Below are positions 19,825 through 59,000 of a DNA stretch of 64,000 nt, piece after piece. The DNA comes from Amoebophrya sp. A120. Lineage: Eukaryota; Protista; Dinoflagellata. Below the pieces are notes generated by a model. It was not told the origin of the DNA and did no database searches. It saw only the letters and a list, made by a program, of their open reading frames with translations. The stretch is taken from positions 15,996,142 through 16,060,141 of the forward strand of contig CAJINV010000001.1 of NCBI GenBank assembly GCA_905178155.1. Reading direction: 5' to 3'. The first letter of the stretch is position 1; each line of letters opens with the position of its first letter. A program made the position numbers and the translations under genes.

Positions 19825-22800
19825 CTACAGTTCTTGTTTCTGCGAAGAAGTAGCCCCCTCTTTGCCGTGTCCATCCCTGCGAAACTGGTAAAACTTGGTG
19901 GGGTCCTTTTCCTGCTGCAAGCCGGTTCGCATCCACTGCGTCACGGTGGTCTTCACGCCCTCCAGTACCGGGCACGCAGCATGCCTCGTGTTGCGTCCCG
20001 GGTCCGGGTTGTACTTGAAGAACATGACACTGCCCTTCTTCTTCGGCGTGAATTTCAGGTGGTCGTTCACAAACACGGTCGCCCCGCCCCGTTTCGGGAT
20101 GTCGCAGTACAACAGCGCGGTGGTGACGCGACGGATGGGGGCCAGCTGGAAAGGGCGGTTGTCTGCATCGGTCTTGTTCGTCACATCGTTGCAGTGCTCC
20201 TCGTCGCAGTGCGGCTTGTACTCGTAGCCGACGGGGTTATGGCGTTCTCAACTGTTACATTCTGAACTGCTGCATGAGTTTGTCATGGTGCAAAATTGCA
20301 ATACATTCTCTACAGGATCAAGCTGCTTCGCCTGGCAGGTTCTCGACGCACTAGATTGGTAGCATGAAAATCAAAGTCTGCGCCAAACTTGTAAAGCAAA
20401 AGGCGCAATCTTCCGCCTTGCACAGCACTTTTATTGCCATTCTTGCATTACAAAGAAATCTATGTAGCAGCTAAGAATGCAACGTTTGAGAACTCCGTAG
20501 GGGTAGTTGAGGTACTGCAACGGCTCCTGGCCCGGGGACCACAGGTCGCCCTGCCCGGTCAGCCTCCGCGCGGCCTCGAACAAACGCTCGCGCACTATCA
20601 GAAGGAAAAATCCCCCCACCCCATATCAAGACGAGACTTCTGATTCTCGATTTGGGTACACAAATCAGCCCTGTCTTGCAGTGAGGCACTACAGGGGGCA
20701 AAGCCTCAGCCTGCGTAGGGGTGTTTTGTTGTAGGCACTTAGCATGATAGAGGCCCGCCATGTTCATGTACGTGAAACAGCATTACAAATCGCCTCCATA
20801 AGGCGGCGAATTCTTTGCATTTGCCTTCTTGCAAGAGAGGCAGGATTTGTGGTCACAAATAAGCATCACAAATTTTTAGGAACATACATTTTCAATATGG
20901 GGAGGGGGGATTTTTCCGCACGGTACGCACGGAGACGAAGGTCGCGTCCGTGGGATGGCTTTGGTACGACGTGTATCAAGTGTAAAAATGTCTGGGTCTG
21001 GAAGGATGTAACTTGTGATGCGCATTTCAGAACACACAAAATTCTCTGATGCATAGGCAGCAAAAGCTGCTCACTTTCTGTCACCAAAGTGGGGGATTTG
21101 TCATGCGGATTCGGCATTGCGGAAGCTTCTCGAAACCTGTGATGCTAGAGCTTCCATGCAAGACCTTCCGTGTCATGCAGAAACAGCAGGACTCTTCCAG
21201 ACCCAGACATTTTTACATTTGATAAAGTGTAGTTCCTGTTTTCTTTAGTACTACTGTTGCTCAAACCCGACCCCTGCATCAGGCAGTGTGATTGTTCTTT
21301 CATAGAGGCGCCGAGGCACATCTGACTCGCCAAAGTCCGCCGGCTTTTGTCCAGGGTGTGCCTCGTCGCGCCGGTACCCTTCATCACCACCGCTGGCTTC
21401 AGGGGACCGCCGATCAACGCGTGCTCCCGCAGCGTCTGGCACTCTGCCTCGCTCACCAAGTCCTCCACAACAACCACGGACGCGGGGCCCTCGCGAAGGA
21501 CGCGCACAGTCAGCTCACCCTGTTTCATGTTGGACTTGGCCCACAGAGTCGCAAGGTCGTCCTCGGCGGCGGGCTGGCTCTGCTCCGGATAGACGCGGTC
21601 GAACCACGCCGATTCTCCGCTCAACTTCAGGGAAAAGCTCCGCACGAACTCGGAGTCGGGGGTTTGCGTGCACAGGTGAAAATAGGGGTTCAGCGCCCAC
21701 ATTTGGAACCACCAACGCCAGGAGAACCGCGGGGGCATGATGTAGTTCGGCCGCCCCGGAATCGTCGCACTTTTTACTAAACACCGGTTAAACACGTTCG
21801 GCTGCATCTCGCCCCGCGCGAGAGCCTTTCTCGAATGGAACAATCGGTGCTCCGCCCACAACAGGTCGCGCGGGCTTGCTTCGCGAGCCAAAACGAAAGA
21901 ACTATTTTTGGGAAGAGATGCAGTTTGAATTTCTTCCGTCTTGTTCTCAACGGTCGCATCGTCTGCTGCTTCGTCCCCGGAGGTCGAGGTTGTGTTGATC
22001 ACAGAGGATGTATTTACTTCGTTCTATCCAAGCAAAAAAAGTGTGTGTTACAGTTACACAAATATAGCAGACTCAGCAACACAGATTTGGTCTGCAGGGT
22101 AATGCAGAGATCCGAAGGGAAGACATGCATGAAACGAGATTCCTACGCTTTTGGGGCATAGGAGAGAGGTCGCCTTTCTTGCTTGCCTCGCATCAACTAC
22201 ACAATGTGTAAAAACTGTGACAGCTCTTTTTTCTCTGCATACCGTCACTTGGTCGTCCAGCCGAGTCACCGGGACGGAGATGTTGGACCTGCGTAACGCT
22301 TCCGACGCCCGCATCGTGCAGTTGCCTCGTAAAGCGGAGTCCGCCAGGTGGACCTTCACGTCGTCGGCGTCGTAGGTGTGAAATTCCCGGGCGGTCTCGA
22401 AGATGACCACCAGCAACATTTCGCCCGGGTACACAAACGACAGCGGTTTCAACTCGAAGGGCAGTTCTTTGGCAAGCCTGGGACTCAGCAACGGCCTCAA
22501 CACCATCTCTTTCCCGGCGTACCCCGCCGCCGACGCCGAAAAGCGGAGCATTATCCTGAGTAAAAACGTCCCCACGCCAGAATTGTAATGCAGATTTGCA
22601 AAGACAGGAAGACTTGTAATGCGCATCCCCATGAGAGCCATTTCCAATCATGTTTTGGAATTTGTGATGCTGTGAACAGGATGAGCAGATGAATCTGTGA
22701 CGCGGCTGCACTTGCTAACCTGCACTACACTGCGGAGTGCAACTTGTCATGCGTGACTCCCAAAACTCGTAGGTTTGTGTTGCAAAATCCCCATCCTGAC

Positions 22801-24608
22801 TCTGGTGTAGGGACGTTTTTACTCAGGATAAGCATCCCGATTCGTTCACTGCGGTGCATGGAAGAAGCTTTCGTAAAATTCGTCTCTGCCGGGACAACGT
22901 ACTTCAATAACCCGTCTTTCAGGCCCAGTTCGAAGGGCACCGGACTCAAGTTCCACACAACCAGGTCGTCGCTCGGGGCGCCGTCGGACGTTCCCTCGCC
23001 TGGCTCCATGTTGAAAAAGTCCGTCGACCGGTTCGCGGAAAACCGCCAGCCCAGATGGCGCACGATTTCCTGTAGCCGGTGCTCGGGCACCGCGTCCATC
23101 CACGATGGCAATGCGAAAGGAACATCTTGATTTGCTGCTTCTGCCTCGTCCAGCTTCTGCTTCCACAGCGGTATGGGGATTTCGTCCTTCATCACCGCTG
23201 AGATCAAAGATTTTGTATTTTTCCCCAGCGCTGGTACGGGAATAATTTCGTCCTTCTTCGCTGGGGAGGGTATGACTGATTCCCCGTTGCTTTCGTTTGC
23301 TCCCCCGTTTCTTGCTGTTTTTGCCCACGCAGATAAAAAATCGCTTGACGGTGGAGGTCTGGCCGTCTTGTTCTCGGTGGAAATGAAATCATCACTCTTA
23401 CCGGTTCCATTTCCTGCGCCTGCCCCAGTTGGTGAGGACCCCGAGTTCTTGTTTGATGTTGACGATCGCCTTTGTACTTCGCCATCTTCTGCTTGTTGTG
23501 CTTCTTCGTCGTGGTCCTCGCATTTCTTTTCCGCTTCTGCTGCAGTTTGGTTTTTCTTGGAGCTGTTCTGGAGTTCCTTCCTGAGGATGTTCATCACGTG
23601 CGAAATAGAGTTTTTCTTGCCGGCGTTAACAGATGGGTAAATGTATGGCGGATTAATTTCATTCTTATCCTGCTCTACTTCATCACTTCCGGCCTCGTCC
23701 TTCGCAGAAGTTTCGTTTCCCGGGGCGAAATCGTGGACCGAGGTCAGACGTGCGTGTGTCATGTACACGTCGCGAGACATGTCGGCGAGCGTCATGACCC
23801 GTGCGACGCCGTTTTCCAGGATTTCGAGAAGAAAATGGCTGCTGTTGCGCCGCGAAAAGGGAAACATCTGCAACAAATTTTCCTGTTGTTCTTGACCCGG
23901 CGTTGACGCAGGAGGTGTCATTGGTTCGAGAACGGTTCCTGTCGCCAGTGGAAAAGGAGAAGGTCTTGTCGCATTTAGTACCTGCGACAGGATCGTCCCT
24001 TGCCCTTCTTCTTTTTCTGAGACAGGATCTCCACTTTCACTCGTCGATGAATAAAGTGCTCCTGCAGCAGAAGAATTGATTTGCGTTGTGTCGTTCTGGA
24101 CGATGCTTCTCATTCGCGCGTTTTCTTTTCCAGTGCGTTCTTTCGGCACCAGCAAACGCATAACCTCGTTCGGCTTAATCTGCTGCGTCTCGCGAAAAAT
24201 CGCACTTCTCCCAACGGCAGCCGGAATCACGCGTGTTTCCCAGGTCCAAGAAGACTTCTCGGCAGTCTTCTTCTGCTTCTCATTTTCCTCTGCCTTCTTC
24301 TCAACAACCGAGGTCCTCGACGGCGTGGGAACTAAGCGCTGGATTGCGACGCTGGTAGGTGATTTGTTGACCACCCACATCGGCAAAGTTTCTTGCTTCG
24401 GAGTTGTTGGGAGACGCTTTTTCAATTCTTCCAGCAGGCGCCTCTGCATGTCCATGTTCCTTTGCGGGGGCATCGGCGAGGAGACCGACTCTTCCATCTT
24501 TCCCGGAGGACTTGGGTCGCTGCTCGCGGCACCAGACGTCTCGGCAACGGCTGAGGCTGTGCCTGGCAGTAAAGCTGCCAGCAGCAACACATATGAACGC
24601 GGACGCAT
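19825..24608 (-). CDS. Secreted prolyl 4-hydroxylase-like 2OG-Fe(II) dioxygenase with long N-terminal region (4 introners plus one GT-AG intron at 22248-22024)
   Basis: Signal peptide at 24608. After splicing: VEDLVSEAECQTL...RT..., EPLQYLNYPVGYEYKPHCD, RRVTTALLYC, GGATVF, HAACPVLEGVKTTVTQWMR (HxD...H...K). Confidence 0.9.
20238..20499. mobile_element. Introner, own TIR family
   Basis: TIR tatggcgttctcaa.../...ttgagaactccgta; DR ggggt/ggggt. Excision gives NYPVGYEYKPH. Confidence 0.9.
20596..20925. mobile_element. Introner family B (GGAAAAATCCCCC TIR)
   Basis: DR cgcac/cgcac. Excision gives TFVSVRERLF. Confidence 0.9.
20974..21224. mobile_element. Introner family A (ATGTCTGGGTCTGGAAG TIR)
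   Basis: ~30-bp TIR; DR acgtg/aagtg. Excision gives NYTSYQSHPTD. Confidence 0.9.
22552..22830. mobile_element. Introner family C
   Basis: TIR tatcctgagtaaaaacgtccc; DR agcat/agcat. Excision gives RIGMLRFSAS. Confidence 0.92.
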
Positions 24609-28400: not shown

Positions 28401-31400
28401 CTGTACTTGTGCGTGACTAGTCGGAAGTTGTAGGGAAACGCTTCGGTTTGGTCCGGGGTGTTCCGAAAAGCGCGGTACACCAAGACTGGACGGCCCTCTT
28501 GCAACAACACCAGGGTCGGCCCCGCGTCGCCGGTCGCGAGGCTCATGTCGACCAATGCGACGGCAAGCATTTCAGGCGTCGCGTACTCGGTGTCCGCAAA
28601 GTCATTCCCATCCGTCGCGGGGGTGGCCACGCACCGCGCCCGATCCTTTTTGGAACTTACCGCGCTCGTGGTCCCCGAGAGGATGGATCGGAGCAGGCAA
28701 ACGCCCTGATCGATGTTCGGAACCGAAAAGACCTCGAGGAGTTCGGCCTGGTTTTTCGGCGTATTCATCAGCTGAAAAATCTTCAAAAACCGTTTCCGCT
28801 TCGGTCCCCGCTGCTGGTGTTGTTCCTGTTCGGTCGCAGTGCTCACTTTCTCCGTGACGGCGACCAAGAAATCGTCGTTGTAAAAGTTCGCTGTCAAGAT
28901 GTCTCCGTGCTCCGCAGCGTCGTAGGTGAGATTGTGAATCACGCCGCCCCGGGACACCGGGTCAAAATCCAGTTCCAGCAAGTGCATCCTTTTCGTACCG
29001 TGCTCCAAAACGACCAAATGCTTTCCACTGCCGCTCGCAAACACCTGCGCGTCCGCGAACCTGCGGCTTGCGTCCTCCGGATTCAATATTGCGGCGTTTT
29101 CGTACTCCGGATCCGTACCAAACACGTCACTGGCCGGCATGGAAACCAAAGGCTCCAGCGCGACCGGGTCTACGACGAACAAGTCGCCGCTCTGCAGCAT
29201 CACCCAGTACGCCCCGTATTTGAGAATCCCGCCGCAAAACAGCAGCTGCTTCTCGCAGAGGAAGGAGTTGGGTAACTCGCGGATGGTCACGGTTCCGCCC
29301 TCTTCCTGGGCGGCCACGTCCAAGACCAAGTTCTTCGTTGATTCTGTCGACACAACAAGGTACTTCGTCTCTTTTGTTGAGAAGGAGGTTTTATTGTTTT
29401 GCTCAGTAGCAGAATCACCATTCTTTGGTGTCGCGTGGTCCTTCTTTCTCCTTTTCGTCGCTGGTTGCTGGTGCGCCGCCGGATGTTGAGCAGAAAAGCT
29501 GGAATCAACATTTTGCTCCACAAAAAGTGGTAGCGTCCAGCTATCGGACAACACATCAGGCGGAAGTTGAAACGACACCCGGGCCTCGGTTGGCACCTCG
29601 GCGTGGACGCAGTTCAAGTGGCTGTGCTGTTCCCCAAATCCGGTCACCGCGACGAAGCCAGGCGTCCAATTTGCCCCGGTGCCCCGCTGGTCGTTCAAGT
29701 TGACCCCGATCGTACTGACCGACCGTAACCGGCCGAGGTTCCTGGTATCCGTTTTGCGCATCTTGAACACAAACGCATCCGTGGTGCGTTTCTTTTTCTT
29801 CTTTGCCACGACCTGCTTCTGGCTCTGCTCCTTCTCCATGTCGGTTGCCAGATCTTTCAACATCCGCAGATGCTGCTGTGGGTCCCAGGCATCCGGCTGA
29901 TCCACGTAATCGCGGTTGTCGACCTTCGTCAGATATTCCAGCTCCTCCTCCGGCTTCAGCTGCAGACCGGTAGGCTTGCTGTTCATCGGCAGTAACTCGT
30001 CAGGATCCACCTCCGCACTGCTCGTACTCACGTTCGGCTCCATCTCGACCAAGATCTGCGACCCGGAAGCGCTACTGGTCAGGTGTAAAAATTTCCCGCC
30101 GAAAAAGCACAAGGAGTCGAGCGCGTGGCCAAGCAGCGGGTCGGAGGCGGGGCCGAAAATCGTGATTTGTCGCCACACAAAGGTGCAGACCGAGGACGCG
30201 GAGAGGTGGTGTCGCTGTTTGTTCAGCAGTTTCGGCTGGGGGGACTGCTGCGGGCTGGGCATGCGCGGGGTGCGCTGCTGCAGGCTGGACATGGTTTGCT
30301 CCACGATGTCGCAGATGTAGAGCGCGCCATCTTGCAGCGTGGGGTGGGTCAACAGGACGAAGCTGTCGTGCTCCGGCACTTGGGCGACGGAACAGTCCGT
30401 CATGTCGAGGTTCAGGGCGCAGTTCTCCTCGACCACGTTGTACGGGAAGAGGTCTGGGTCGTCCACGAGCAGCCCGTTCTGGTGCGTGATTTGCGCGGCC
30501 ACGTGGTCCTCGTCCAGCTTGTAGTTGCCCGCGAAGGCGAGCGCGTAGGAGGACAGGATGCAGACGCCGGACGGGAGCGGGAGGAGTCTGCTCGCGTTGA
30601 AAAAAAAACCGGCGCCCTTGGACAGAATCGCGAGCTCTTCCGTTCGGAGAAACAGCGAGACGACGAAGAGAACGGTGGAATTCCGACACTTTGCCATGTC
30701 CATGGCGGTGCCGGGCCCCGTGCGCCCCACGACCGCGAAACAGGGCCTTGTCAAACCCTGGCTGGGGAGGAAACAGACGTCGTCCGCTGTGTAGACGCGC
30801 AAACTTTTGCTGAAGTTCAACACAAACGCCTTCTCCTGGAAAAACGGCTGGCAGTCGAAGTATTCCGCTTCGTGGAGGTTTTGCTGCTCCTCCGCCTTTC
30901 CTTTGCCCTTGTTCGGGTCCGGCTTCGAGGGGGGAGCGCTCGCGACGAGCCGGCTCCTTCCTGTGAAGAAAGGTGGAGTGAGTAGAACTAGAAGTGGGAG
31001 TAGGTGCATAAACTGTATAAGTTCTCTGATGGAATAGCTGCAAGATCATGTCTCATCAGAAGATGCTTTACTCTAGAGATGTCGATATCCAGACAGAGAA
31101 CGAATGATTTACGCATAAACATCAAACTTGAAATTCTACCTCCACCTAAGTTTGTCTATCAAAAGAACTGGAAGCTGCACCACGACAAATTATCACTTAC
31201 CCCGCTTTCCCCTGCCTTTACTTGTTTGGCCGAACTTCGTAGGTTATCAAATGCAAATATGTCTGGGTCTGGAAGATCTTGAGGTGTGTCATGCTTGTCT
31301 GGCATGACCAAAAAGTTTGTGATGCGTGTCCAAGAAGAGACCCTTTTGCCTGTCATGCAAAAATGCAGTTTGTCATGCAAAAAACGCACCACAAAGAAGC

Positions 31401-32403
31401 GCAGATATTTCACATGCTTGCCTGTGCATTACAGAGCATTCACTATTCCCAACGCAGCATTACAAGTTTCCAGACCCAGACATTTTTGCGTTTGATATAG
31501 GTACGGGCACCGGGTCCTCGCTGATGTTGACAGCCAGTAGGGCGTCATCGAAAATTGTGAACACCACGCAATGCACCGAGTCCACCTGCACCATAAGACA
31601 CCTCTCGTTCGGGTCTACGTGCACCTTTAAGCACAAAGCATCCCGCCGCAAGCTCGGTAACCCGCGGCTCAGGTGCAGAATGTGGGTGGACAACGTGCGG
31701 AAGGAGCTGAATTCCGGGGCAAATTGCAGCACCGAAAACCTCACATCCGTTGACGCCGACGCGGTGCGAAAAAACAGCACGAGGAGGTTCTCGTCGCCGA
31801 ATTGGGAGTGTTTAAACGCGGTACTCGCGTACGCCGGGCGGTCGAACAGGGTAAGACTGGCATGCAATTATGGAAGCGTCAGGATCGAAATCGTCAAAAT
31901 CGAAAAACTTGTGATGCATAAAATGTAGAGCACTGAAGGCCTGTATTGGGGAGCAGGCATATGAGGCCGATTGTAAGCCTGCTTAGGGGTATGCAATGTG
32001 CTGCCAGAGTAGCATGACAGGAGCAGTCTTCTTCCCCCAAACAGATTGACAAGCTGGATTTTGGTGCTCCCGAAATTTGTCATGCGCCACTTGAAAACTG
32101 AGGCTCCAACTGACAGCGATTTTGTGCATCACAAGTTTTTCGATTTTGTCAATTTCGATTCTGACACTCCCATAGCAATCTGGTGGAGGTTGTTGTAGAC
32201 GAGGACAATTCGACATCGTCTTTATTGGCAGTGGAGGAGGAACTACTGCTGCTGGAGGTAGTACTTCTTTGGTTCGGCAGCGTTACCACCTCAATCAACT
32301 CCACGACGGTCCCGCGAATGACGATACTGCGGTCACTCCCGAAGGGGAGGCAGTAGTCGACACATCCCGGGTCGCTCAGCTGTTGCAGTACGCCACACGA
32401 CAT
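25409..32403 (-). CDS. CPSF1: Cleavage and polyadenylation specificity factor subunit 1 (CPSF160), multi-exon
   Basis: C-terminal VAADLAGNLHLFQYFP...GDRVLRTSASFYLG, ILLGDLHNGV, VGTSINLGEDAICRGRVLLF, LEDGALLNLFLFLS; N-terminal LKVHVDPNERC. Two introners plus several GT-AG introns. Confidence 0.9.
31245..31497. mobile_element. Introner family A in CPSF1
   Basis: DR taggt/taggt. Excision gives DPVPVPTKFGQ. Confidence 0.92.
31869..32174. mobile_element. Introner with ~55-bp TIR in CPSF1
   Basis: DR gcaat/gcaat. Excision gives TRLHASLTLF. Confidence 0.92.
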
Positions 32404-33254
32404 TTTGGATAAGCTTCAGGCTCAGGTTGCTAAAAATGGATTGCGATTGTTAACTACGAAAAATCCTGGCTTTCAGTTTCAACTTCAAAGGAATAGTGCC
32501 AGTGGTGAATAAACCGTAGAACCTTCTTGCCGTGGTCCTCGCTTTAAAATAAACCGGAGGCGTCAATACCATAGTGTATACTTCTTCTACGTGCTAGGTC
32601 CGAATCTTGTTTAACAAAGCTGTACTCTTGACTTGTACTTCGTAAAACTTTTGATAGTGATGAAGTTCCGATACTTCCTGTACTAGCGTTCAGGAACTTA
32701 CTACACTGCGCGTCGCCGTCGCCTGCTTCAAAAAAAGAAGGTGTATTCCTCAAAAAGACAAACAGGTCTTGGAAAACGTCGGAACGCGAGACAAAGATCG
32801 GTAAAGTCTGATCGAAATCGGGATCATTAACCTTCAGTAGAAAACGGATCTGCGAGGCACTCGCTGCAGCAATCATGATCTCCGTCTGTAGCATGGCACC
32901 ATCTTTGCCCGACGGCAGCGCTTAAATGATCTGCGCGCTACTAGCAAATGCAGTCCTAGAAAGAAACTTGTTGCAGCTCGCGCAACATCGTAAAACTAAT
33001 ATGATGAATAAGGCTTGCAAGTTGCTGTCAGTGACTTTGCCATTGCTTCAAAGCAACACGCCCACATTTTTATTTACAACTGATGAGTGCCTTCGGCCCA
33101 AAAGCAGGCGCGGGCCCCTCTATTTATACACAGTGTTCGCATCAACACACTCGTTCTCGATCAACAATCGCGTGGGCTACCCGGATGCGCCCCAACCAAA
33201 ATCTAGAAGTAGAGACCTGCGCTCACTTCCGTGTATCTCCAAAGGCATCAAGCC

Positions 33255-44300: not shown

Positions 44301-47300
44301 AAAGAAGGAGAACGTGTTTCGACGCGGACCCTCTCTCTGCTGTCTGTTCTTCCTTCGTCCCGGCGGCGACTGTATCGTAAAGAAAAATCTCCCCTCCCCA
44401 TAGTGAAATCGCATCCGTCTGAAAATTTGTGATGCACATTTGTGACCTCAAATCTTGTTTGTCTTGCAAGAAGGCAAGTCCAGAGAGCCCCCTGCATTTT
44501 GCAGGCGGTTTGTGATGCTGTTGGGCTTAGAGCATACACGTTTGTCATGCTAGGCGCCTACGTCAAAACCTCTCGACCGAGGCTTGACATATGCCTGCAG
44601 TCCTCTACTGCAAGACAAATCTGATTTGTGTACTCAAATACAGCATCACAAATTTCGTTTTCGATATGGGGCGGGGGGATTTTTCCTTCTGATAGACTGG
44701 GCGCGGATCTCTTTTATCAGGGCGAGACCATCGACCAAGGATTTCCGAGCTTCCTTGTCGCGCAGTGCAGGCACCAGAGTTTGACGGGCGTGCAGGCGGA
44801 GCGCCTCGCTGTCGATTTCCTTGCGCATTTCAATCTTCACCGTGGAAGACGCCGCGCGGCCCCTGGAAGACGAGGTACCAAAAGGGCGAGACCCCTCGAC
44901 ACTATCGTGCAAAGTGTCCGAGCAGGCGAGTTTCGAATAGTCCGGTGTCGGGGTCGCCTCGTCGAGCCTCGCATCCGCAGCGCGACGGTACAGCCGGTAA
45001 GCCTGAGCCCCCGCTTCTTGTCCAGTTGAAATAAATGCCCCAACACCAGAAGACCGAACAACAGATTGCAATTGGGTTGCAGTAGACTTTATCTATTTCT
45101 ATACCGAAAAAGAAGAAGAAAATGCTTGTATTGCATGAAGGAGGGCGACGCATTTTGTTTCAGCCAACTGCGCGGCTGATAGACAAGGCTTATACTGTGG
45201 CGCTGCGCAATACAGACTTTCGCTACTGAGCCTTGGACATTTGTCATGCTAATACATGCAGGAAGCTAAATGTTGCAATCGGTAATTTAGCAATACCAAC
45301 GCTGCCACATAATTCTGGGGTGGGGGCACTTATCAATACGATACTTTTGGTCCGTCCACCACCTGGACCCACCGGCACAGCAGTGGCGACCCATTTTGTT
45401 CCAACGCCGCGTCCTCGTCGTCCAAAGGCATCAAAAAGTGAACGATATTGAGCGTGCGCCCGTTAAAGGCCGCGAGGCCGCGAAAGAAAGAGCACTTCCG
45501 GTCTATCCTAAGGAAAAATCCCCGCTCCCCATATCGAAACAGCACGCATCACAATAAAATTTGCAATGTCGATCTGTCGACACACATCGTCTCTGTCTTG
45601 CAAGAACGCATTACACACACCCCACTGGCCCAGTTGCATTTTGCCGGCAGTATGGTACGTGTAGTTGCTTTTGGGCGGCCTACAGTGTGAACATTTGTCA
45701 CACTAGGCGCGCACGTCGCTAGAGCATCTGTCGCCGGCTTGGTAGAATATGCCTGCAGTCCTCTACTGCAAGACAAACTTGATCTGTGTGTACGCAGATT
45801 CAGCATTAGGAGATTCGTTTTAAAAAAATGGTTTTTTTTTGATACGGTCTCGTGTCCAGTATCCCCACCCGGACATCCGTCCCGGGCTGCACCGCGTATG
45901 CTGCCACTCCCAGTTGTTGCGGTTCACGAAGACACTGCTGGACGACTGCGGGCGGCCGTCGCGCGACTGGTTCCAAGACTCCATGGAGAGACAGTCGTAT
46001 GCAAGAAAAAAACTGTGTAAGTAAGTGGAGATTTGTGTTGCAGAACATGCAACAGAGTCACGCCTGTCATGCCAGACAGCCATGAAGTCCTCTTTTCATG
46101 TGTGTTTTCCCTTACAAGCCACGCATCACCACAGGTTTTCTCTGTCATGTAGAGCAAATTTGTGATGCTTTTTTTTTTTTATATAGCGGCAGTTTGTTCT
46201 GGGAACTGGAACTGGAACTGGAGGCGCCCCCCGAGCGGAATACTTCTGGTGGTAGACGTGGCTCAAGGATTTGCGGCTTCGCGCCGCGACAACCAAATGG
46301 GGGTCTCTTCCCCCCCCTCCGCTTTTGGCTACCAAATATAGCCGCCGCGGCGGAGGTAGTGAGGTCGGTGGCGCTTTCTTGCCCCCACCTTGGCCGCGGG
46401 CCGGAACGGCGCCTGCTTTTTATGGGCCCTCCGTGCCGCCGTGGGTAAGGTTATGCCGCACGGTATGGCGGCCGGTTGAAAAACATAGCAGATTTTTGGC
46501 AAATTTCCGGAATTCCCTTAAGAAAGCTAGCCCCGACGCTATGGGCCCGATTCTGGCGCCACGGAGGGCGCCCAAAAACCAAAGAAAAATCGGGCCCATA
46601 GCATGCGGCTTGGCTTCGCGCGTCCGGCGCGCTTTTTCTTTTTTGCGTTTTTATTTTTCGCGCCGGCGCTTTTTGCAAAGCTTCTCCCGCTTAGAAACGG
46701 GCGAAAAGGCGGCCGCTTTCGCGGCCGCCCAAAATGCTCCGAAATCGCGGCCGTGTCATGGGGTTTCGCTGTTCTGATTTTGGGCGCGCTTTTTTCGCAC
46801 GCCCTTTTGGGCGCCCCAAATCGCCAGAAACCAAGGCGGTGGGCGCCTCAAAAGGGCGCCCCTTTTGCCGGCGCCCCTGCGTCGTTTTATCAAGCGGCGA
46901 CCGATAGTTTCCGCAGGCGATTCGTTGATAACAAAGCCAAACAGGCTTGCACGCTGCGAGCTTTTTCAGGCAAAAAAACTCTCTATAGGCTTCAAAACTG
47001 CCGGCCGTTTTTGGCGGTTCCTGTCAAGAAAGCTGCCAGGTTAGAACCGTTCGGTGACCTCACTACATACAACTAACCTTACGATGAATCTCATTCCTAG
47101 TTTTCATTTTGACCTTAATGCTGCCGCGGTGCTCACGTCGACCGATATGCAAACAGGTGCCGAGGCCTGTTTGCATGCAATCTAGTGAAGGTTTGTTGGG
47201 CGTTCCCGTCTGCCTTACCACGTCGCCCGGGCTTGCAGGGGTTGGGATTTTCCTGCCGGATGTTCATGGACATCTACGGGGCTAGTCATGATCCCGCTCC

Positions 47301-50242
47301 CTGTTGCGACCTGCTGTTTATTTGGTTGACAAAATCCGAGCAATGCAAGGCCTGTCGAAAAAAAAAAGAGAAAAGCCACGGTAGCTGAGCGCGGGGACAC
47401 TCTGAGAATATGACTGAAGGGAAAGCCATTAGACTACGAGGGAAAATATGTAAAGCGCCAGATGATGAGAAAAGCGAAAAACTTACGTAGGGGCTCGCTA
47501 GCTAGTAAGGGTGAGAAGGGCTATCAATCGCAAGCAAAGCGACCTAGAGAGAAAACGCTTAAGATTCGACAGAAGCCAAAAGGATCAAAGATGGGAACAA
47601 AGTGAAAAAACAACAGAGAATCAGCGGCGCAGGCTAGGGAAAAAAAATGCTTAGCGGCCTCTCAGGAACAAGAAGAAAAACGTAACCAAAAAACCAGAAG
47701 AGATTCTTTCACTTAGGGGAAAAAAAAGAGGATAGGACTCAGCAAAAAACACGCTCAGCATGCTATTGGAAAAAAAAGAAGAACACTGAAATGCAAATTT
47801 GTGGTTTGTCATGCAAAAATGTTTTTTGAAGAACACTGAAATGCAAAAAAGAAGAACACTGAAATGCAAATTTGTGATGCTGTTTCTCAAAGAAAGTTAC
47901 ACTTACACACTATTTTTCCTGGATAAGTCGCCGTGCTGCGTCACAATCAGCGTCTCGCCGACCCGCTTGAACCACTTCATCATCTGCATCACAATGGCCG
48001 GCACGCCGAACGAGCGGAGGAAACAGTACATGTTGGTGTTCCCCACGTTCACCCAGGTTCCCTGCATGTCCGGCAGGTCTTCCGATCGCGACTTGGACAA
48101 CAGGTGGTGCGGCACGCCCACCAGTTCAGGCTTCCCTCGGTCATACAGCCCGACACGCAGCTATGACGGTAGATAACTCCCCCTCGCCCTCATTCGGGTG
48201 GAGTGCGCAGCGAGAGAAGCTCAGGATCAGTATCAGATGCAGCTTTTGCATAACAAATTTCATTTGAGGGCAAATTTTATTCATTGCTCTTTCGGGAAGT
48301 GCCGCGAGGTGTATTTGCTATTCGGTACTTGTTTGGCATGACAACTGAGGGGGAGTTGTGCACTCTGATAACAATTTGGCGTGCAGCGGCGAGAAGCGCT
48401 CCGCGTTGTTAGCGGAGAGCATCTGCTCCTCTTCGGCGGAAAGTGGCACTTCGGGATTTTCAAACGCATCCCACATCCACGGGAGATTTTTTGGAATTTT
48501 CCCCGGATCTAATCGGACTTCTCTGGTCTCAACTGCAAACATGTCTGGGTCTGGCAAGATATCGACTCTATCGCGCAGGAACCTCGTCGTGTGAGTCACC
48601 TACAGTAAAAGCCGGTATGCACGGCATACTAGCATCACATATTTATCTCTAAAAGCCCCTCAATTATGCCTATTCCACATGATAGGAAAATCACTGTTCG
48701 CGTGGCAACACAGGCGCAGCTCTTGCTGCTCCCCGCAAGAAAGATTTTTGTGTGCCAGCTGAAGACTTAGACTACAGAGACCATGATCACAAGCTTGCGT
48801 CCTCCTCCTCCCGGAAATTCAGACATATTTGCAAGGGATACATGGGCAGCTTCAGCTTGTCCCGCAGAACCACGAGGTCCGCTCGGCCAATCATGTCGCG
48901 AGTGCTGGGGATGGCGCCGTTCTTCGAGCTGTCGTCGATCGACAACAAGTCGCGCAAGGTCGGTATGTTCGCATTCCACCGCGATGTTTCTTCCGATGTG
49001 CCGCTATTCGCGGTAATCTGCCGGGTCGCCGCGCCACGGGTACCTCCATCGGAGGGTGTCGCGAAAGAGTTTTTTCTGGGGAGCGCTGCAACATTACTGT
49101 CCTGGTCGCTTTTCACTGCAACAACTTCGCCCTGTTTTTCTTTCGCGAGGACACCATTTTGTTCCTGTGTCGAGGTCGGTAGCTCTTTTTTCGACTCAGT
49201 TCGGGTGCTAGTGGACCCGGCGTGAGTCGCTTTAATACTGGGCAGCTGCGCAGTACTAGGTACAACTTCGTCCACCTGCTCGTTTGAAGCAGCTGGGATT
49301 TTCTCTTCGTCATTACTGCCGCCAGATTCCAGTTTCGGAGTTTTTGTACCGACGTCCGTGGTAGGCTTTTGGTTTCCTTTCTTCTGTTCATCTTTGTTGG
49401 CACTATTTTGCACGTGGTCCCACGTGTATTTGCGCGGCGGGTCGAGAAGAAAAGCGTCAAACAGCAAAGCCATGGTCTCACCGCAACTGCAACACATCAG
49501 CAGGCTGTTATGGATTGCAAATATGTCTGGGTCTGGAAGGTTGGAACTTGTAATGCTAGCTCTACATTCGTGAGAAATCTGTATTGCATAACCAACAAAT
49601 AGAGCCGCAGCCTTTTCGTTACATACAAGATCGCAGCTTCTCATGCGGAATGCCTATGGGAAAGCGTTCTGGGAAGTTGTCATGCTGGGCTGCATTCGGG
49701 AAGTGTTTCCATCATGCACATTTTAGCATCGCAAAATTTCAGACCCAGACACATTTGCATTTGGTAGTCGTGGTAGCTGAACGAATCGCGGAAACCTGTT
49801 TTCTTCGCCAACTCCTGTACAAATTAATTTGTTTCGCGAAAAAATTTTATCATCCAGTATGCATCAATAGACATCGTCCTGCATCGCAAGGTAGCCAATT
49901 TGACTCATAGCACAAACCCAAAACCTCTTTCATCGGAAGATACATTGAGTTCGCAAAAAAGCACCCGCCTGAGTGTACCGCTCGCAGCCCAGCAGTTTCG
50001 CTCTCCCCACAGATTGCAAATTGCGGAAAGGAGTGTCGTCTCCTCTTCGTGATAAAACCATCTGGCTTGATAGACGCCGAACGAGACTTCGAGCTCTCTT
50101 TCCGACGATGCGAACATCCGGCAATGTTCAATGGTGCCTCCGAAAGAGGCTCCTCGGAAGACGCCGTTGGGGGCTCCATCGTCATAGCGCTGGTATCATG
50201 TGTGGTCCTGATTAATAGAACAGAGTGCCACGACTTCTTCAC
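38400..50242 (-). CDS. Very large multi-exon protein with two FABP/lipocalin-like domains and a hydrophobic C-terminal region (ends approximate; could be two genes)
   Basis: LPDMQGTWVNVGNTNMYCFLRSFGV (~48060) and LPDFAGTWVEYSN (~43120) resemble the FABP GxW N-terminal motif. Exons join in frame across the introners checked (e.g. HGDCLSME, EWNPERYN, ALLGTASV, SMPLLRAG). Confidence 0.65.
38728..39003. mobile_element. Introner family A (diverged)
   Basis: DR cgcag/cgcag. Confidence 0.85.
39276..39548. mobile_element. Introner family A (diverged)
   Basis: DR ggcag/tccag. Confidence 0.8.
39633..39893. mobile_element. Introner family A (diverged)
   Basis: DR tccaa/tccaa. Confidence 0.8.
40651..41113. 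mobile_element. Introner family B carrying a 131-bp insert
   Basis: DR aagag/acgag. Insert 40719-40849 is flanked by gatgctgtattt twice. Confidence 0.85.
41486..41719. mobile_element. Introner family A, close sister of 49509-49766
   Basis: DR tccca/tccca; aligns along most of its length with the 49509 copy. Confidence 0.92.
42715..42910. mobile_element. Introner family A (diverged)
   Basis: DR gccga/gccgg. Confidence 0.75.
43246..43713. mobile_element. Introner family A, enlarged by ~200 bp
   Basis: DR ggttc/tgttc. Excision gives EWNPERYNT. Confidence 0.85.
44118..44266. mobile_element. Introner family B (short)
   Basis: DR ccgca/ccgca. Confidence 0.85.
44373..44694. mobile_element. Introner family B
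   Basis: DR gactg/gactg. Confidence 0.9.
45100..45338. mobile_element. Degenerate introner (family C-like right end; left end unclear)
   Basis: Right end aattctggggtgggggcacttatcaata and internal TTGT(C/A)(A/T)TGC motifs. A GT-AG intron (gtatcg...aaatag on minus) also joins the frames. Confidence 0.5.
45504..45844. mobile_element. Introner family B
   Basis: DR cggtc/cggtc. Excision gives YWTRDRKCSF. Confidence 0.88.
45998..47925. mobile_element. Introner enlarged to 1.9 kb by a nested insert
   Basis: TIR tat(g/c)ca(a/g)gaaaaa...tgtgtaagt; DR agtcg/agtcg. Excision gives QHGDCLSMESW. Confidence 0.85.
48231..48370. mobile_element. Short degenerate TIR element within an intron
   Basis: tatcagatgca / tgcactctgata. 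DR is poor and simple excision does not restore the frame. Confidence 0.45.
48527..48840. mobile_element. Introner family A
   Basis: DR tctgg/catgg. Excision gives KLPREVRLDP. Confidence 0.82.
49509..49766. mobile_element. Introner family A
   Basis: DR gctgt/gtcgt. Confidence 0.88.
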
Positions 50243-50921: not shown

Positions 50922-52343
50922 TCAGGATGATTCTGCTAGTGGATTTTCTGGTTCTCCTGTTGGACTTTCCACGCCCACATCTGCTTGCTGATCGGACATT
51001 CCTTGCATGTTTGCCAGCGGCTGTTCGCCGTCCCCCGGGCCCGCTTCGCCTTCCGGCCGGCCGCCCAGCTCCGCCTCCGTTTCCTCGTCCTCCTCCTCCT
51101 TGTGCTCTTGTACCGGCGTTTTTGTCCCAGCTTCCTCTTCTGCCTCAGTTTTCTGAAACGCCATCTCCTCCTCGTTGTCTTCCTTCGCTCTATCGCCCGC
51201 ATCGGGCTCGTGGTTGTTGTGTTCCGCATTTTTTTCTCCCTCCGCCTCGAGGTCCTCCTCCTTTTGTTCCGCCGATTCGAGTTCCTTTGGCGGAACTTCG
51301 CCATTTGCTTCCATCTCCTCAAGCTTCTTCTCGCGCTCCATTTCCGCAACCCGCTCCTTCACGGACTTGCCGCCAGTTTCCTTGTCCCCGACACTGTGCT
51401 CCTCGACGTGCTCCCCGCCTATCGATTTCTGCACCTCGTCCTGCCCCACGTACTCCGCCTCCCCGCGTGGAACTTTGGTTTCGTGCTGCCCCGCGGATTT
51501 CTCTGCGGTCTCAGGATCAACGTACGGGCCGTCCTCGTCGGAGCCGGAGGAAAACAACCCGGAGAAGCTCGTGCTGGCGACGCGTTTTGCAGCAGATGAA
51601 ATGCGGACACTGGGTAAAATTTTTGCAGGTGCAGCCGCTGCGTTGTGGGGGAACAATCCGAACCGCGGGAACTGGTCTAGGACCTGCTTCAGATCTTCCA
51701 GAGCATCGGTAGAAAGAACACGTAAATGACTAAGAGCTCCCATTTTTCTGGAATTCAATGTGTACCCAAAATAAGCCAACAGATAGAAACCTGAACAACA
51801 GATGGAGCCGAACCTTCGCCAATAGTTAGATAGAAAGATGGTGATTGAGTGTTTGGAAACGATAAACGATTTAGTACTACTCCTTGTCCAAATCTTTTCC
51901 AAGCATTTTCACGGCAAAACGCATGTGCAAGCAACCGAGCGACTGGCGAAAAACGACCTTGCTTGGTAGCGGCGAAGACGACTCGAGACGAAGGATGTGT
52001 ACGAGTGGAAAAGGAAACCTGGGTGTTCCCCCAATGCTTGAAGGCAGAAGTTTTATTGCGAAGAAACAACGATACATCCCTGGAGAAACAAAATTGAGCA
52101 AGGCAACGATGTTCTCAGACTTGGAACAAAATGCAAACCGGGAGTCCCGGCGGCAGCAGTAGGAAATACATAGTGAGCACGCAAACCTCTCAAGGCGAGA
52201 GACGCATCAAACCTCTCAGGCGCAAAGAGGTTGGATTTTGAACGGCAATACTTCATCTTCATCTTTGCGAAATGAGGTTCCAAGTACCGCTCTTGCATTA
52301 TCATCGCGGCCTTCAAGCAATCCTGATTGTACTTAAGCGTCAA
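50922..52343 (-). CDS. Hypothetical protein with Glu-rich C-terminus (5' exon structure uncertain)
   Basis: Acidic ORF from 50922 to ~51740; possible upstream exon 52343 to ~52200. Confidence 0.6.
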
Positions 52344-53048
52344 ACAATGCTTATTGCCGAAAAGCAGTTTCGTTTGTTAGTGAATTCAAGGTGATATCAT
52401 CTTTTCATGTTCTCACAGTTGTGAGTCGTTGGAATATAAAAACAGACACATTTTTTGCCACTGCGCTTGCCCCTGCCGATTCCAACCTCGCCTCCAGCAC
52501 TGGTTTTACTCAATTGTGATAAGTACGCGGCCTCGGTTTACGAAGCCTCCGCTCTGCGTGGATGCTTTGACTTCTTTTCGACCGCAGGCAATTGTGAATG
52601 TCACATCACAAGCGAGGTTCAAGATTTCATAGAGGAGCAGACTCTTCTCCGCTGGCCGCGACGCAAGAGAAAATTGAAAATTCAGCTTCCAAAGCTGATT
52701 CCAGCGAATGGATTGGGATTAAGATTATCACCTTGCTCCCCACTCCTGGCTGCGGCACCCTCCGAATTTTCTCGCGCACGTTTCGCCTTGACACCTGCAG
52801 AGTCGTCGATACCAAGCCACGTTGTCGATGATGAAGTTCGCCGCATAAAGTTAAAGATCAACTTCGCGGAAAACGCACTCAAGTCAAAACATTGGAGATC
52901 TTTATTTGTCGGCTAGCTACATATTTGATCTTGAAGGATGGTTGGATGACCTCTTCGGTCCACATTTTCCAAAATTCTACATAGGTGCGAATTTTCTCCC
53001 CAACAGAACTGGAACTGCTGCTGCTTAATACGTAAGCTATACTTACTC

Positions 53049-56000
53049 CTATCGGAGTTTATCACTAGCAAGAAAGGTTGCGAAATCTTTCGGATCCATG
53101 TGCATTAGCAGCTGGTAGGACTGCTGCTCGTCCGAGGGTCGTGCAGACGGTTGTTCTAGTTCGTCGGGCTTTTCGGCTGACGAAACTACAGCTTCAAGGA
53201 CCACTTCTTCCTCAGTTGCAGCAGCAGTAGAGCCGCTGTGCTTTTCGATCTTCAAAAAACCAGTAAAGTCTGCACCTGCAGGCACAATGCCGTTTGAGCT
53301 GCTGATCGCGGCACCGCTTGCTTCTGCCTCGTCAGCTGCGTCGTCGCGCGCTCGCTTCTTCCGCCCTGCCGGTGCGGCGACGGGCGCCGCCTTCGGAGTC
53401 GAGGCGCCGTTGGTAGTTGTGGTCTCTTTCACTTCCAGCGGCGGGGTGTCGCCGTCAAGATTCTGCCCAAATCGCTCCGTTGCCGTCGCGCCGCCAAATG
53501 CGTTCTTGCCATTGCCTGTCGTTTCATTTTGAAACGCGAAAATGAAAGACGTCTTTGAGTCTCCACCAAAAAAAGTCCGCAAAATTCAACAACAAACTGT
53601 GAGAGCACCAGCAGAGCATAGGCTGAGCACGCATCTTTGCAACTATGAACCAAAAAGTGAGTACCGAAAATGCTTTTCGTCCCTGTCGAAGCGAACACGT
53701 CGTTGAAAGAGCCAGTGTCTTGGCTCAACGGCCCACCGAAAAGGCTGTTCCCTGCCGCTGCACCGCCGCCGAAAATGGAGCCTGTCGTCGTTTTCCGGTC
53801 CTGGGAAGAACTTCGCCCCGTTTTTTTGCTCGAGGAGGCCCTTGCGTTCTTCTTTGAGGCGGAGAAAAGCGGCTTGCTTTCGTCTAACACGTTCGTGCTG
53901 GGTGCCCGCCCGAAGATGCTGGTTTCCGGCTTGGGTGCGAAAATCCCTTGGTTGGTGGAGGAAGCCTCGAAAATGCTGCGTCGCTTGGTCGGGCGCTCGC
54001 CGTCTTGCTTTATCGCGGACGCTTCCAGCTGGTTCAGCTTCTCCGCTTTTGGGTCGGCATTGCCAAAGATACTGGTGATTTTGTCCTTGTCCGCGCCGAT
54101 TCCGCCCGAAAGGGTTCCGAAAATCGAGTTCTCCGCGGGTTTGGCCTTCGGCGTGGAACCGCCAAAAATGTTAGAACTAGTGGAGGTCGCAGTGGTGGTA
54201 GTTGTCGTGGTCCCGAAAATGGATGTCGTTTTATTGTTTGCATCCGAACTGGGAGGTGCTGGTGCAGCGGGGGCCACTACTCCGAAGATGTTGGTGGTAC
54301 TAGTAGAACTACCTTTGATGTCACCACCTAGTAGCCCGCCTCCGAAAATTGATCCCGTCGACGACGCAGGTGGCGCAGCACCTCCGAAAATCCCGGTCCC
54401 CGCTGGTGCGGGTTTTGTTTCAGCAGGAGCGCCTGCTGTACTCTCTTTCTTCTCGCCTTCTGCTGCTCCCGCAGCGGGCGCCTTGGTACTATCCGCGGCC
54501 TCTCCTCCTGCAGATTTTGACTCTGCGCTGCCAAAAGTGGGCGACGCCTTTGCGGGCTGTTCCGAGGACTTCACCGGGTTTCCGAAAATGCTCGTCGAGG
54601 TGGACGCTGTCGCAGCGTTCCCGAAAATGCTGGTTGAGGCTATGACTTGCTCAAGCGTTACAATCTCAAATCGGTTACCATAGAATCTGGAATTTGTGTT
54701 GCATGATGAGCATGACAGACTCGCACAAAAGCGTTCCACCTTTTGCAATACAAATTTCGCCAGATTGTAGTGATGTTTGGGGTTCCGGAACTTGTCATGC
54801 GCAGTCCTAGGAGAGTTGGCTAGATCATGCACTCTTGCATCACAGATTTCCATATTCTATGGTAACCGATTTGAGATTGTAACACCTGAGCGGGTTATAG
54901 AGGCGCTGCCACCCGCGGGTGCGGCGCTTCCGAACAAACTGCCACCTGCCGGCAAATGTAAAAATGTAAAAATGTCTGGGTCTGGAAGAATGCAACTTGT
55001 GATGCTGTGTTTCGATGTCTAAAAAATTTGTGTTGCATGAGCAGCAAACAGAGTCTAATTTTTGCTACGCGGAGAAGGCATTTGTCATGCGGAATGGGCA
55101 TCAAAAATCCCTCAACAAACCTGTGATGCTGGAGCATGCATTACAGGCATCGTGGGTCATGACAAATATGCATGACAAATCTTGCATTCTTCCAGACCCA
55201 GACATTTTTACGGTTGATACGCTGCCACCCGCTGGTGCGGCGCTTCTAGAGCTTTAACACGCGTTAGCATGAGACGTGGTGAATCTCTAGTGAATTTTGC
55301 GTGACAAATTGCAGATGAGTCCGCCGGGACATTGTCCCTCTTGGCCCTGTTCTGGGAAGTGGGTTCTGCACAGACACCGCAAAAGTCAAGGCTTATGCGG
55401 CGGGCAGCTTCTAGACATGGCCTGGGTGCCGTTCTTTGGCCATGTCTATTCGTCTCCCTGAGCTCGCACAAGAGTACTGCAGCAGCCGCGGCAAAGACGC
55501 CAAAAAGCAAGTGCTGCGAAGCAAATGCAATTAGGCAAGAAGGCGCGGAGGCAAGGGTAAAGGACCAGGCCGAGAGCTTTGACGCGTCTATCCGGCAGGC
55601 GCGTGAACTCTCCCCCTCCCGACCTTTTCGGCAGAATATAGCCGGGCTGAGGGCAGCAGAGGGCGCTTGTCTTTCCCCCTCGGCCCCACTTCCCAGGGCC
55701 TATTTGCTGACTTCCTTGAGCACTTTTCTGCGCTAAAGTTTGCTTATCACGGTCGAAAAGGCGGGCCCGGTGAATTTTGGGGTGAATTTTGAAAAAACCG
55801 TGGGCGAATTTTGGCCCGAGGTGCCTATTCAAAATTCGCTAACGCACGAGAAACTTCGGGTTTTGGGGCTTCAAAAAAGTGTCGCCAAAACAAAAAGCCC
55901 CAAAATTCACCAAGGGAATTCCTGCCCTGGGGGCCACGTCGAAACGGCCTCGCTCCGGAGGCAAAAACACGCCTGGGGAGTTGTGAGCAGAGCACAGCAG

Positions 56001-59000
56001 GTGCAGCAAGCTAGCGTCCGCGGCCGAATCGTGCCTCCCCTTCCACCCGAGGCTGCTCCCAGATATCCAAGTCCAAGCCGAGCCAACCACAACTCGTGAG
56101 AGCATACATGTTGAACTAGTGCTCCTGTGTTCACCCGTCGCCCTCCCTTTCGACAATTCCGGAGAGGAACTTCTCAGGCAGACGCGCAGAAGAGTAAGAG
56201 CCACCCGATCCACCTTCTCTGGTCGCTAAATACGCGCTACACAGCCCGTTGAGGCTCGCCCCCGCAAGACCACTTCTTTCGGTCCTGCAAGCGCCACCAC
56301 GCGACGAACAGCCCTTCACGCTATGTGGGATGCTTGGGCTCGTGTGTCTAATACCTAGCGCACTTCTCTTTTAAGTACTTAAATGCAAGTCATGCAATAC
56401 AAATTCACTGCAAATTCACCCTTCTGTACGCTAACGACCGTCCAAGGCATAGCCGCTGGTGCGGCGCTTCCGAACAAACTGCCACCTGCCGGCTGCTGAA
56501 CACCCGTATTGAGAGGAAAAATCCCCCCTCCCCATATCGAAAAGGTATGTTTCCGAAAATTTGTCTTGCTGATTTGAGCCTTAGTTCCCCATGATATCCG
56601 CAGGCCAACTTTTTTTTTTGCTCGCTCCCCCCTCCTCGCAGGCTAGAATTTGTGTGGTCCCAGAACATGCAACGTGTCCTCCGTGCCACCCGTGCCACCC
56701 GGGCCAACGTCAGGGGTCCCTCACCCCCAACACGCCGAACTTCCTCCTTCCACTCGCAGCGTCGGAGGGGTCGCACGTAGCCCTGGAGGTGATAAACGAG
56801 GGTGGCGCCTGTATATGCAGTAAAATACTGCACAGGAAATGAGGAAGTCAGAAAGGAACACAAATGTTCTGGGATGACTGTTTAGGAACATCCCAACAAC
56901 CTCCGCCAACCACTGCCCTCGAATACACAAGAGAAAGCCGAAGCTAACTCAACTCCGGATACCCTTCCCGAAGCTGACCTGAACCGCCCTTCTCCACAGG
57001 TCAGCGACGAGGCAATGCCCTGAGGGGACCGTTAGGAACCTCCCCAAACAATCGTCATGTCGTTTCGCCGAAGCGAAACAGTCTTGCTGATTTGAGGCCC
57101 CAAATCAAGTCTGTCTTGCAAGAAGACAACGCCGCAGGCTCTGCCGCACTATGCAGGCGGTTTGTCATGCTGTTGGGCCTACAGCATAGACGTTTCTCAT
57201 GCTAAGCGCCTAGGCCAAAAGCTCTCTACTCAGGCTTGGCAGGAGCCTGCAGTCCTCGCCAGCAAGACAGATCTGATTTGGGTACGCAAATCCAGCATCA
57301 GAAACTTCGTTTTGATATGGGGAGGGGGGATTTTTCCTTTTGATAACCCGCTGGTGCGGCGCTTCCGAACAAACTGCCACCTGCCGGCGCGGCGCCAAGG
57401 CCTCCGAATAAGCCGCCACCGGGAGGCGCAGACCCGAAAATAGAGTTTGTCGACGCGGCGGGCGCACTGTTCGGGGGGGTGGGGTTTCCGAAAATGCTCG
57501 CGTTCGCCGGCGTGTTGAAGTTAATACTCGTTCCTGCCGGGGTGATGGCGGAGATCTTGCTGGTAGAGGGGATGCTGGACTTGTCGCCAGCGGGGGCAGA
57601 TGCGCCGTCCGCGTCTGTTGTAGGAAGATTATTTTTCAGATTGCAAATGTGTGTGTGGCGGTCATATGATATGAATATGTCCCGTTTCGGTATCATCTAA
57701 ATTGGTACAAATGGTTGTATATTTTTCATAAAACTTCCAGCAAAAAGCCTAGTACTCTCTTCGCCGTCTCCTTCCTTGAACTCGTCCGTATCCGGTATGG
57801 TTTCATTCTGGTACCATATGATTTCCACTTTGCCGTCTTTGCCCGTCCGCTCGGAAGGCAATTCGTAGCGCTTGCAAATTTTTCGGTACAAGAGAAGCTC
57901 ACTGCCCTTGTTCTTCTCGAGCAGCTCATCGATGTTGCCGATCTTCTTTGGGTTCTTCTTGTAGTAGACGGCTGCGATGTTTGCCTTGAAGAAATCAGTC
58001 TGCGACCCCTTCTGCACCACCGCCGCTCCTGCACTGTCAGCGGAATTTTTGTTTACTGCTTCTTGATCTTGCTTCTTTTCCGGTGACTTTTCGTCCTCAG
58101 CTTTGTTGACATTTTCTTCCTGCTCCGGCTCTTCTTCCGCTACCGGCTCGATCTTGCTTTTCATCGCCTGCTGCTCCACCTTCTTGGCTTGCAACATATC
58201 TTTCAGGATGTTGCTGCAGTCGTCGGGCTCTTCGGGCACCGGGTCGAGGGGCGCGAAAGACGTGTTGCCGAAACTGGGCGCTTCTAACCCCCCACCGCCC
58301 AAGAGTGCGGAAAAATCGAGCGCCGGTTTGTTCTCACTCTCGGCCTGCTTCGGCGCGCCGGACTTGCTTGCGTTATTCCGTTCCTCAACCTTCGCACCAA
58401 AAAGGCTGGTCGAAGAACTCCCAGCCTCTGCACCCACAGCTACGCCAAAGGTGTTTGCAGCACCTGCTTTCGGAGACTTGTCACTGCTCACTGGTGGCGC
58501 GCCGAAAATGGACGATGTCGCGGCGCTACTAGTTTCCGCAGCGGCTGCCGCACCACCTCCAAAGATACTACTACTTCCCGCACTGCCCCCCGGCGCTGCA
58601 CCTCCGAAGACTGGAGTTTTGTTTTCAAGCCCAGTTGTAAAAGTGCCTGCAGGAGCGCCAAAAGACGGAGTTTCCACCGAGCCAAAGACGTTAGAAGTTG
58701 CGGTCGCTGCGGGGGGACGGAGGGGACTGGGGAGCTTGGGGCTGCTGGGCCGGGATGCGACCCGCGCCGTCGGGGAGTGGCGCTGCGGGGAAAACGACCG
58801 CGTGTTGTCTTCCTGCTCTGCGGCTTCCTTCGACTTTGAGGTGGCGAGCTTGGTATCAGCATAACTGCCGTGTCGACCTCGGACCTGCGTTATTTCCAGT
58901 GAAAAGAAATAGGTACAAAAAGTCATCATGTCCGAAAAATCTGCGACAGATAAAAGTAGAAACGACGGAATATTAAATGACTCACCGTTAGCGTTACCTA

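Follow-up and report, generated by a model that had tools for sequence, protein, structure and literature searches.

The introners of the dinoflagellate Amoebophrya sp. A120 were described by Farhat et al. 2021 as elements with TAT ends, seven variable bases and an A-run, bounded by 3–5-nt direct repeats, removed from transcripts without GT-AG borders and containing no transposase (PMC7789003). The available text of that study reports neither a transposase nor a U1 small nuclear RNA in A120, counts tens of thousands of non-canonical introns, and leaves open how they spread and are spliced (PMC7789003). Here we analyze the introners within 64,000 nucleotides of the A120 genome (positions 15,996,142 to 16,060,141 of contig CAJINV010000001.1, assembly GCA_905178155.1; hereafter the window) and a short motif that recurs inside them.

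Transposons with repeated internal binding sites provide the closest precedents. Hermes carries short subterminal repeats in both directions that are bound by BED fingers, helped by AT-rich flanks (PMC10368747), and the hAT5 group generates target-site duplications (TSDs) of 5 bp (PMC12730594). Emigrant, a miniature inverted-repeat transposable element (MITE) of Arabidopsis, has terminal inverted repeats (TIRs) and subterminal motifs that the pogo-like Lemi1 transposase binds cooperatively in trans (PMC1636448).

A shared motif inside the introners

Genes of the window lie on the minus strand and are broken up by TAT...ATA elements of 150–840 bp with ~30-bp inverted ends and a 5-bp flanking TSD. 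We curated 25 of these elements (7563 bp) plus one split element. At least 13 of the 25 are skipped exactly, each together with five bases equal to one TSD, in contigs that are likely RNA (runs X1–X4, one sample; the RNA status is a software guess). Nine GT-AG introns are likewise dropped in the X1–X4 contigs that show element skipping, while the raw-read runs X8 and X9 contain element fragments only and yielded neither joints nor strand. Removal of the elements restores frames of 1177 and 1755 codons on the minus strand and proceeds without GT-AG; the TSDs are not biased toward GT or AG. Element-plus-TSD lengths fall 99:84:85 over the three phases. Predicted folds contain TIR stems, with interior stems that vary with family and direction. 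In their ends, direct repeats, non-GT-AG removal and repeated families without coding capacity, the window elements match the published A120-type introners.

The original prediction, made from the letters of the window, held that a 9-bp motif, TTGT(G/C/A)(A/T)TGC, recurs in introners with unrelated TIRs. All five copies that it cited within the element at 31245–31497 are present (31286, 31317, 31350 and 31370 on the plus strand, 31457 on the minus strand). Because two of these start with G or C, we write the motif as YTGTVWTGC (YTGT[C/G/A][A/T]TGC), which follows an A-rich 5′ flank. The other elements named also carry strict copies: one at 20238, five at 22552, three at 31869, six at 44373, three at 54641 and two at 56507. 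The claim of unrelated TIRs holds for positions 16–30, the sole family-specific part, and fails for the outer pattern of TAT[C/G], ~6 variable bases and an A-run, which is common to all families.

Strict matches are concentrated within the elements. The window contains 53 matches against an expectation of 4.29 ± 1.89 (100 shuffles), so the predicted enrichment over background is real. Forty-eight of the 53 are located in or at the TAT...ATA elements and their 5-bp TSDs – 44 inside the 25 curated elements, where dinucleotide shuffling gives a mean of 0.86, and four in or at the split element, one of these (47806) at the edge of its insert. Seven of the 25 curated elements lack a strict copy. 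As had been predicted, the motif is scarce elsewhere: there is one match in 12,852 bp of RNA-bridged exon, none in the nine RNA-supported GT-AG introns (1941 bp; ~11 expected at the element rate) and four in the remaining 41,291 bp.

We sought the motif outside the window by scanning metagenome contigs (14 of 64 parts) with the TIR of one family (A), which identified at least 162 loci, all in one assembly. This assembly may represent the same or a close strain, because one copy is nearly identical to the element at 20974. An element finder that took no account of the motif returned 268 elements belonging to 11 TIR families; it demanded a 5-nt TSD, and its TSD count is thus not independent. The strict motif occurs in 260 of the 268 elements and in all 11 families (641 matches versus ~10 by shuffling), including 111 of the 116 elements outside the query family. 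This breadth supports the proposal of a common cis-code. We kept uncalled DNA of the loci, with 1.36 strict matches per kb, out of the background, since motif-bearing copies lie in it. The X8 reads, which belong to a second study, contain one further copy in which the spacer differs and the second site is again 31 bp past the first. Two TIR scans of viral contigs yielded no elements and an Rfam search returned no matches.

Shared ancestry accounts for part of this pattern. Clustering families by interior BLAST chained them together and was replaced by TIR-based clustering. Sixteen subfamilies have at least three copies each and supply the 16 consensuses analyzed below. These collapse into seven groups alignable in their interiors, some of which join different TIRs (D/H/I, E/F and B/G), and a common origin of the introner system is likely. 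With a null that keeps motifs and shuffles the rest, interior similarity exceeds z 4 in 14 of 15 within-group pairs and five of 105 cross-group pairs. The remaining 100 cross-group pairs fall below z 4 and have nothing in common beyond the motif, so whole-length homology, the alternative named in the original prediction, does not describe the families. Mirrored TIR changes are modestly above shuffles (109 vs 72; 36 vs 18), an excess that relatedness can explain and that does not discriminate between one and several transposases. Two sets of candidates were rejected: apparent orthologous insertions (L059, L102 and L146) proved to be chance neighbors with unrelated flanks, and unpaired TIR ends considered as autonomous elements were secondary insertions or contig ends.

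Layout, orientation and decay of motif copies

In all 16 consensuses the first motif copy lies 35–66 bp from each element end. The predicted position of a copy just inside each TIR is thus borne out; an inward orientation of the two terminal copies, however, is limited to nine of the 16. Same-direction pairs 31–33 bp apart are a second regularity, with 23 such pairs in 14 of 16 consensuses (2.8 under random placement, a count of 23 being reached in 0 of 5000 trials) and representatives in all seven groups. Site gaps in the B4 introner at 22552–22830 are 31, 48, 33, 49 and 31 bp, and the B2 introner at 44373–44694 has three site pairs at 32, 32 and 33 bp. Pair spacers share 32% identity with the next unit against 26%, and the pairs are not tandem copies. 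A weaker reversed site often follows the first copy of a pair by 9–10 bp (group mean –2.0 vs –12.2 bits, reached in 0 of 2000 shuffles), an offset that we chose after viewing the profile.

The best period over 149 pairs is 10.4 bp (0 of 1000), with p = 0.008 when the 29–35-bp pairs are removed, and the distance of copies to the element tip peaks at a period of 10.1 bp (p = 0.011). We consider the 31–33-bp pair rule firm and a general helical phasing of motif copies moderately supported.

We next consider the strand of the transcript, which a codon model called for 176 of the loci elements. Elements are oriented 91:85 relative to the inferred transcript, and the two motif forms occur 343:315. 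The B4 family, whose copies face one direction, inserts 5:6, so the suggestion that orientation symmetry makes either insertion direction tolerable is unneeded. All six copies in B4 element 22552 lie on a single strand, yet the element is skipped exactly. Separately, among loci elements with unlike ends, TATC is found at the transcript 5′ end more often than TATG (44:27).

Trees of 251 copies from ten subfamilies allowed us to estimate rates relative to the interior background. The core evolves at 0.18 of the background rate along internal branches and at 0.39 along terminal branches; with context matching the values are 0.21 and 0.42, and the constraint persists. Inner TIR rates are similar, at 0.17 and 0.54 with family A, which biases them, and 0.38 and 0.73 without it. 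Core change is equal in both RNA orientations (3.6% and 3.1%), and the change spectrum has no CpG excess. The 64 uncalled loci copies are no more decayed than the called ones and are uninformative on age.

Within the window, we compared 12 old copies, chosen by eye from TSD and TIR decay (the mostly deleted element at 44118 was excluded), with 12 younger ones. Old copies have 38 core mismatches in 321 positions versus 14 in 331 for the young (p = 0.0004), a decay equal to that of the inner TIR, and five of the 12 are still skipped in the likely-RNA contigs. The motif thus erodes in old copies, albeit less than background sites do.

Candidate functions of the motif

We think that the motif, present several times in almost all the introners analyzed, is probably a binding site in double-stranded DNA for the mobilizing machinery, gripped inside both ends in the manner of hAT subterminal repeats. 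Constraint is strongest on lineages that went on jumping, and the pattern as a whole is that expected of sites required for mobility and largely dispensable afterward. A protein would bind copies on one face of the helix, where the observed gaps near 9–10, 31–33, 41 and 52 bp and first copies ~40, 50 or 61 bp from the tip would place them, and so build a transposition complex. Copies that lose sites would likely stop jumping and remain spliced, since splicing probably depends on the paired ends. We would most readily assign the binding to a conserved DNA-binding domain, carried by one transposase or by several related ones, with a host cofactor as a possible alternative. The single shared transposase of the original prediction fits no better than a set of related enzymes or a host cofactor would. 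Of the two readers originally proposed, a DNA-level factor fits, and a splicing factor is disfavored.

Several observations weigh against this interpretation or weaken its support. Pfam detected no transposase in 70 open reading frames (ORFs; 40 of 73 long ORFs from the loci and 30 of 48 from the window). The G of TGC changes at 0.09 of background on terminal branches, as on internal ones, and in old copies the additional decay of the core (0.076) amounts to half of that seen at background sites (0.153); some constraint may thus persist after insertion. Taking one consensus per group weakens the phasing (median p 0.007; p < 0.05 in 81% of 108 combinations), with a best period of ~8 bp in 43 of the 108 combinations (40%). 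Individual families are skewed in orientation (A1 18:8, B2 0:6, C1 8:15), and strand calls were correct for ~15 of 17 control elements in the window. Finally, all loci come from one assembly, and inner TIR figures for family A are biased because the loci were found with the family A TIR.

A host DNA-binding protein might read the motif in chromatin and mark the element, as it is transcribed, for non-canonical splicing, serving both host and mobility. Strand neutrality suits any DNA-level mark, the same word is kept across groups with different inner TIRs, G8 is protected on terminal branches (nine changes vs 99 expected), and U1 is not detected in A120 in the available text (PMC7789003). We nevertheless judge a host mark improbable, since G8 decays in old window copies (9 of 64 vs 2 of 66), old elements that lack any strict match (22025, 38728 and 39276) are still skipped, as is an 839-bp copy with a large insert, and the motif is not enriched outside elements (four matches in 41 kb). 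A broader version, unlikely in our estimation, is that one host DNA-binding protein rather than a transposase reads the phased code on thousands of introners: it would act as a common loader for divergent transposases, draw retroelements to the motif G-C step and help to flag the elements for splicing in an organism where U1 has gone undetected. An RNA signal – a branch-point-like or splicing-factor site placed both ways round, which would let an element splice whichever way it inserts – would explain why the motif is confined to introns lacking GT-AG and why most elements contain both forms, and two spliced elements that lack a strong GCAU-form site do keep weak ones at 6 bits. This idea is largely refuted and we consider it highly improbable: there is no strand bias even for B4, with its six copies in one direction (5:6), conservation is the same in both orientations, sites erode, if less than background, in old elements that likely continue to be spliced, helical-type spacing belongs to DNA, none of the nine canonical introns of the window genes has the motif, and 22552 is skipped exactly with no UUGU-form site even at 6 bits.

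The same comparisons bear on explanations that assign the motif no current function. Simple inheritance from one ancestral transposon agrees with the TAT-N6-A-run ends and 5-bp TSD common to all elements, and with the pairs that align past the motif (14 of 15 within groups, five of 105 across groups, including D/H/I, E/F and B/G). As a full account it is refuted by the constraint, with a core ~5 times more constrained than its neighbors on internal branches; groups differ in the number, direction and position of their copies but retain the word and its spacing, and we consider a functionless relic very unlikely. It is scarcely conceivable that base composition, CpG decay or short tandem duplication produced the motif and its spacing. 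TG and CA do abound in the word and duplication can yield 31–33-bp repeats, but the dinucleotide shuffles (0.86 vs 44), the change spectrum with its absent CpG excess, and spacers unlike the next unit refute this account.

If the motif is a site for mobilization, a strand-neutral, phased sequence common to all families could serve as bait for pulling down the missing protein and as a signature for recognizing autonomous partners. It would also separate the needs of mobility (internal sites) from those of splicing (probably paired ends).

Individual elements and their likeness to known transposons

The leftmost introners are E2 (20238–20499; sites 20280+, 20389+ and 20445–; TIR and 5-bp TSD; joint 20232>20500), B2 (20596–20925; 20671+, 20780– and 20863–; joint 20590>20926) and A4 (20974–21224; five plus-strand sites at 21013, 21044, 21098, 21137 and 21170; joint 20968>21225). 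An old H1 copy follows (22025–22241; one strong site, 22076–, and no strict copy; joint 22019>22242), and then the B4 introner at 22552–22830 (plus-strand sites 22583, 22614, 22662, 22695, 22744 and 22775; joint 22546>22831). The A1 introner at 31245–31497 has sites 31286, 31317, 31350 and 31370 on the plus strand and 31426 and 31457 on the minus strand (joint 31239>31498), and G1 (31869–32174) has 31909+, 32012–, 32077+ and 32126– (joint 31863>32175).

Four old introners come next. An A4 copy (38728–39003; sites 38809– and 38912–, no strict copy) and a D1 copy (39016–39231; 39093+, 39158– and 39194–) share the joint 38727>39232; these adjoining introners are both skipped, and a micro-exon of ~12 nt is left between them, of which two bases are unique. 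The A4 copy at 39276–39548 has a decayed TSD and no strict copy (joint 39271>39550). This decay pins the splice register at 39271–39550, where the minus-strand intron runs from 1 nt before TAT to 4 nt after ATA; the joints at 20968 and 22019 are compatible with that register. The fourth, also A4, lies at 39633–39893 (39677+, 39794+ and 39842–; joint 39627>39894).

Further along are a lengthened B1 introner (40651–41113; 40703+, 40878+, 41030– and 41062–; none among the joints listed), A2 (41486–41719; 41525, 41556, 41612 and 41651 on the plus strand, 41679 on the minus strand), an old A-family introner with an internal deletion (42715–42910), an old lengthened A-family introner (43246–43713; site 43595+) and a short B-type TIR element with its interior mostly deleted (44118–44266). 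B2 at 44373–44694 has sites 44427, 44459, 44510 and 44542 on the plus strand and 44610 and 44643 on the minus strand. Old copies of B6 (45019–45343; 45126+, 45207– and 45241+), B2 (45504–45844), F1 (48162–48370; 48248– and 48336–) and A4 (48527–48840) surround a D-family introner at 45998–47925 that is split by ~1.7 kb of inserted DNA; the 16-bp duplication flanking this insert contains an entire motif copy. The last elements are A2 (49509–49766; five sites), E1 (54641–54899; 54694+, 54710–, 54745–, 54792+ and 54837–; joint 54635>54900), an A4 element with an altered left end (54958–55219; seven sites) and a B2 introner with a ~0.5-kb insert (56507–57345; 56561, 57111, 57162 and 57194 on the plus strand, 57262 and 57295 on the minus strand; joint 56501>57346).

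Secondary inserts break at the motif in the elements at 45998–47925 and 56507–57345 and at the outside loci L053, L055, L010, L027, L030 and L003. Several have poly-A or short-repeat tails and 8–21-bp duplications, and seven of 15 breakpoints lie within 2 bp of the motif G-C step (by eye; rough p 0.02–0.04). These inserts are likely retroelements that target the motif as a refuge in DNA that is spliced out.

No TIR elements were called in 1–19400 or 58000–64000 of the window, despite long coding frames; the first of these parts contains an ORF with an Rcd1/CNOT9 domain (6295–11547). At 32863–36737, five copies of a 45-nt unit ~900–1090 bp apart, with different palindromic or tandem repeat blocks between them, possibly represent a tandem gene array. 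Two intergenic positions (33108–33180 and 38057–38131) share an almost identical stretch of ~75 bp that has a TATA-like core. The region 52283–59004, read from its translation, is likely an FG-repeat nucleoporin-like gene; parts of its exons are duplicated near 54911, 56451 and 57346, and it holds a repeat insert (~55230–56450).

The elements themselves are already published. Subfamily lengths here match the families of 149, 208, 214, 252, 260, 278, 305 and 322 bp of Gozashti et al. 2025, among the rows listed (PMC12130899). In their available text, published A120 introner accounts give ends and direct repeats and no internal motif, spacing rule or constraint pattern (PMC7789003, PMC12130899). 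Nor is the motif described in the available text of two other papers (PMC12005148, PMC11453091), and the accessible part of one preprint (bioRxiv 10.1101/2020.10.14.339549) has no mention of Amoebophrya. The internal motif thus did not turn up in the literature examined, although figures and supplements beyond that text could show it.

As in hAT elements (Hermes, Ac and Tol2), many short sites lie in both directions near the ends beside an AT-rich flank, the two ends are laid out differently, and a palindromic pair has a third site close by, as far as the available text describes them (PMC10368747). The introner site is 9–13 bp and common to families with different inner TIRs, unlike the 4-bp site of Hermes (PMC10368747). 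Most hATs make 8-bp TSDs, whereas introners have 5-bp TSDs as in hAT5, a length that alone is not diagnostic (PMC12730594). Because no transposase was found in the 70 ORFs, we treat the hAT likeness as analogy rather than membership. Emigrant differs in superfamily, is not described as an intron in the text available, and has had its binding shown where ours is inferred (PMC1636448); like the introners, it is a non-autonomous element with TIRs and repeated subterminal motifs (PMC1636448).

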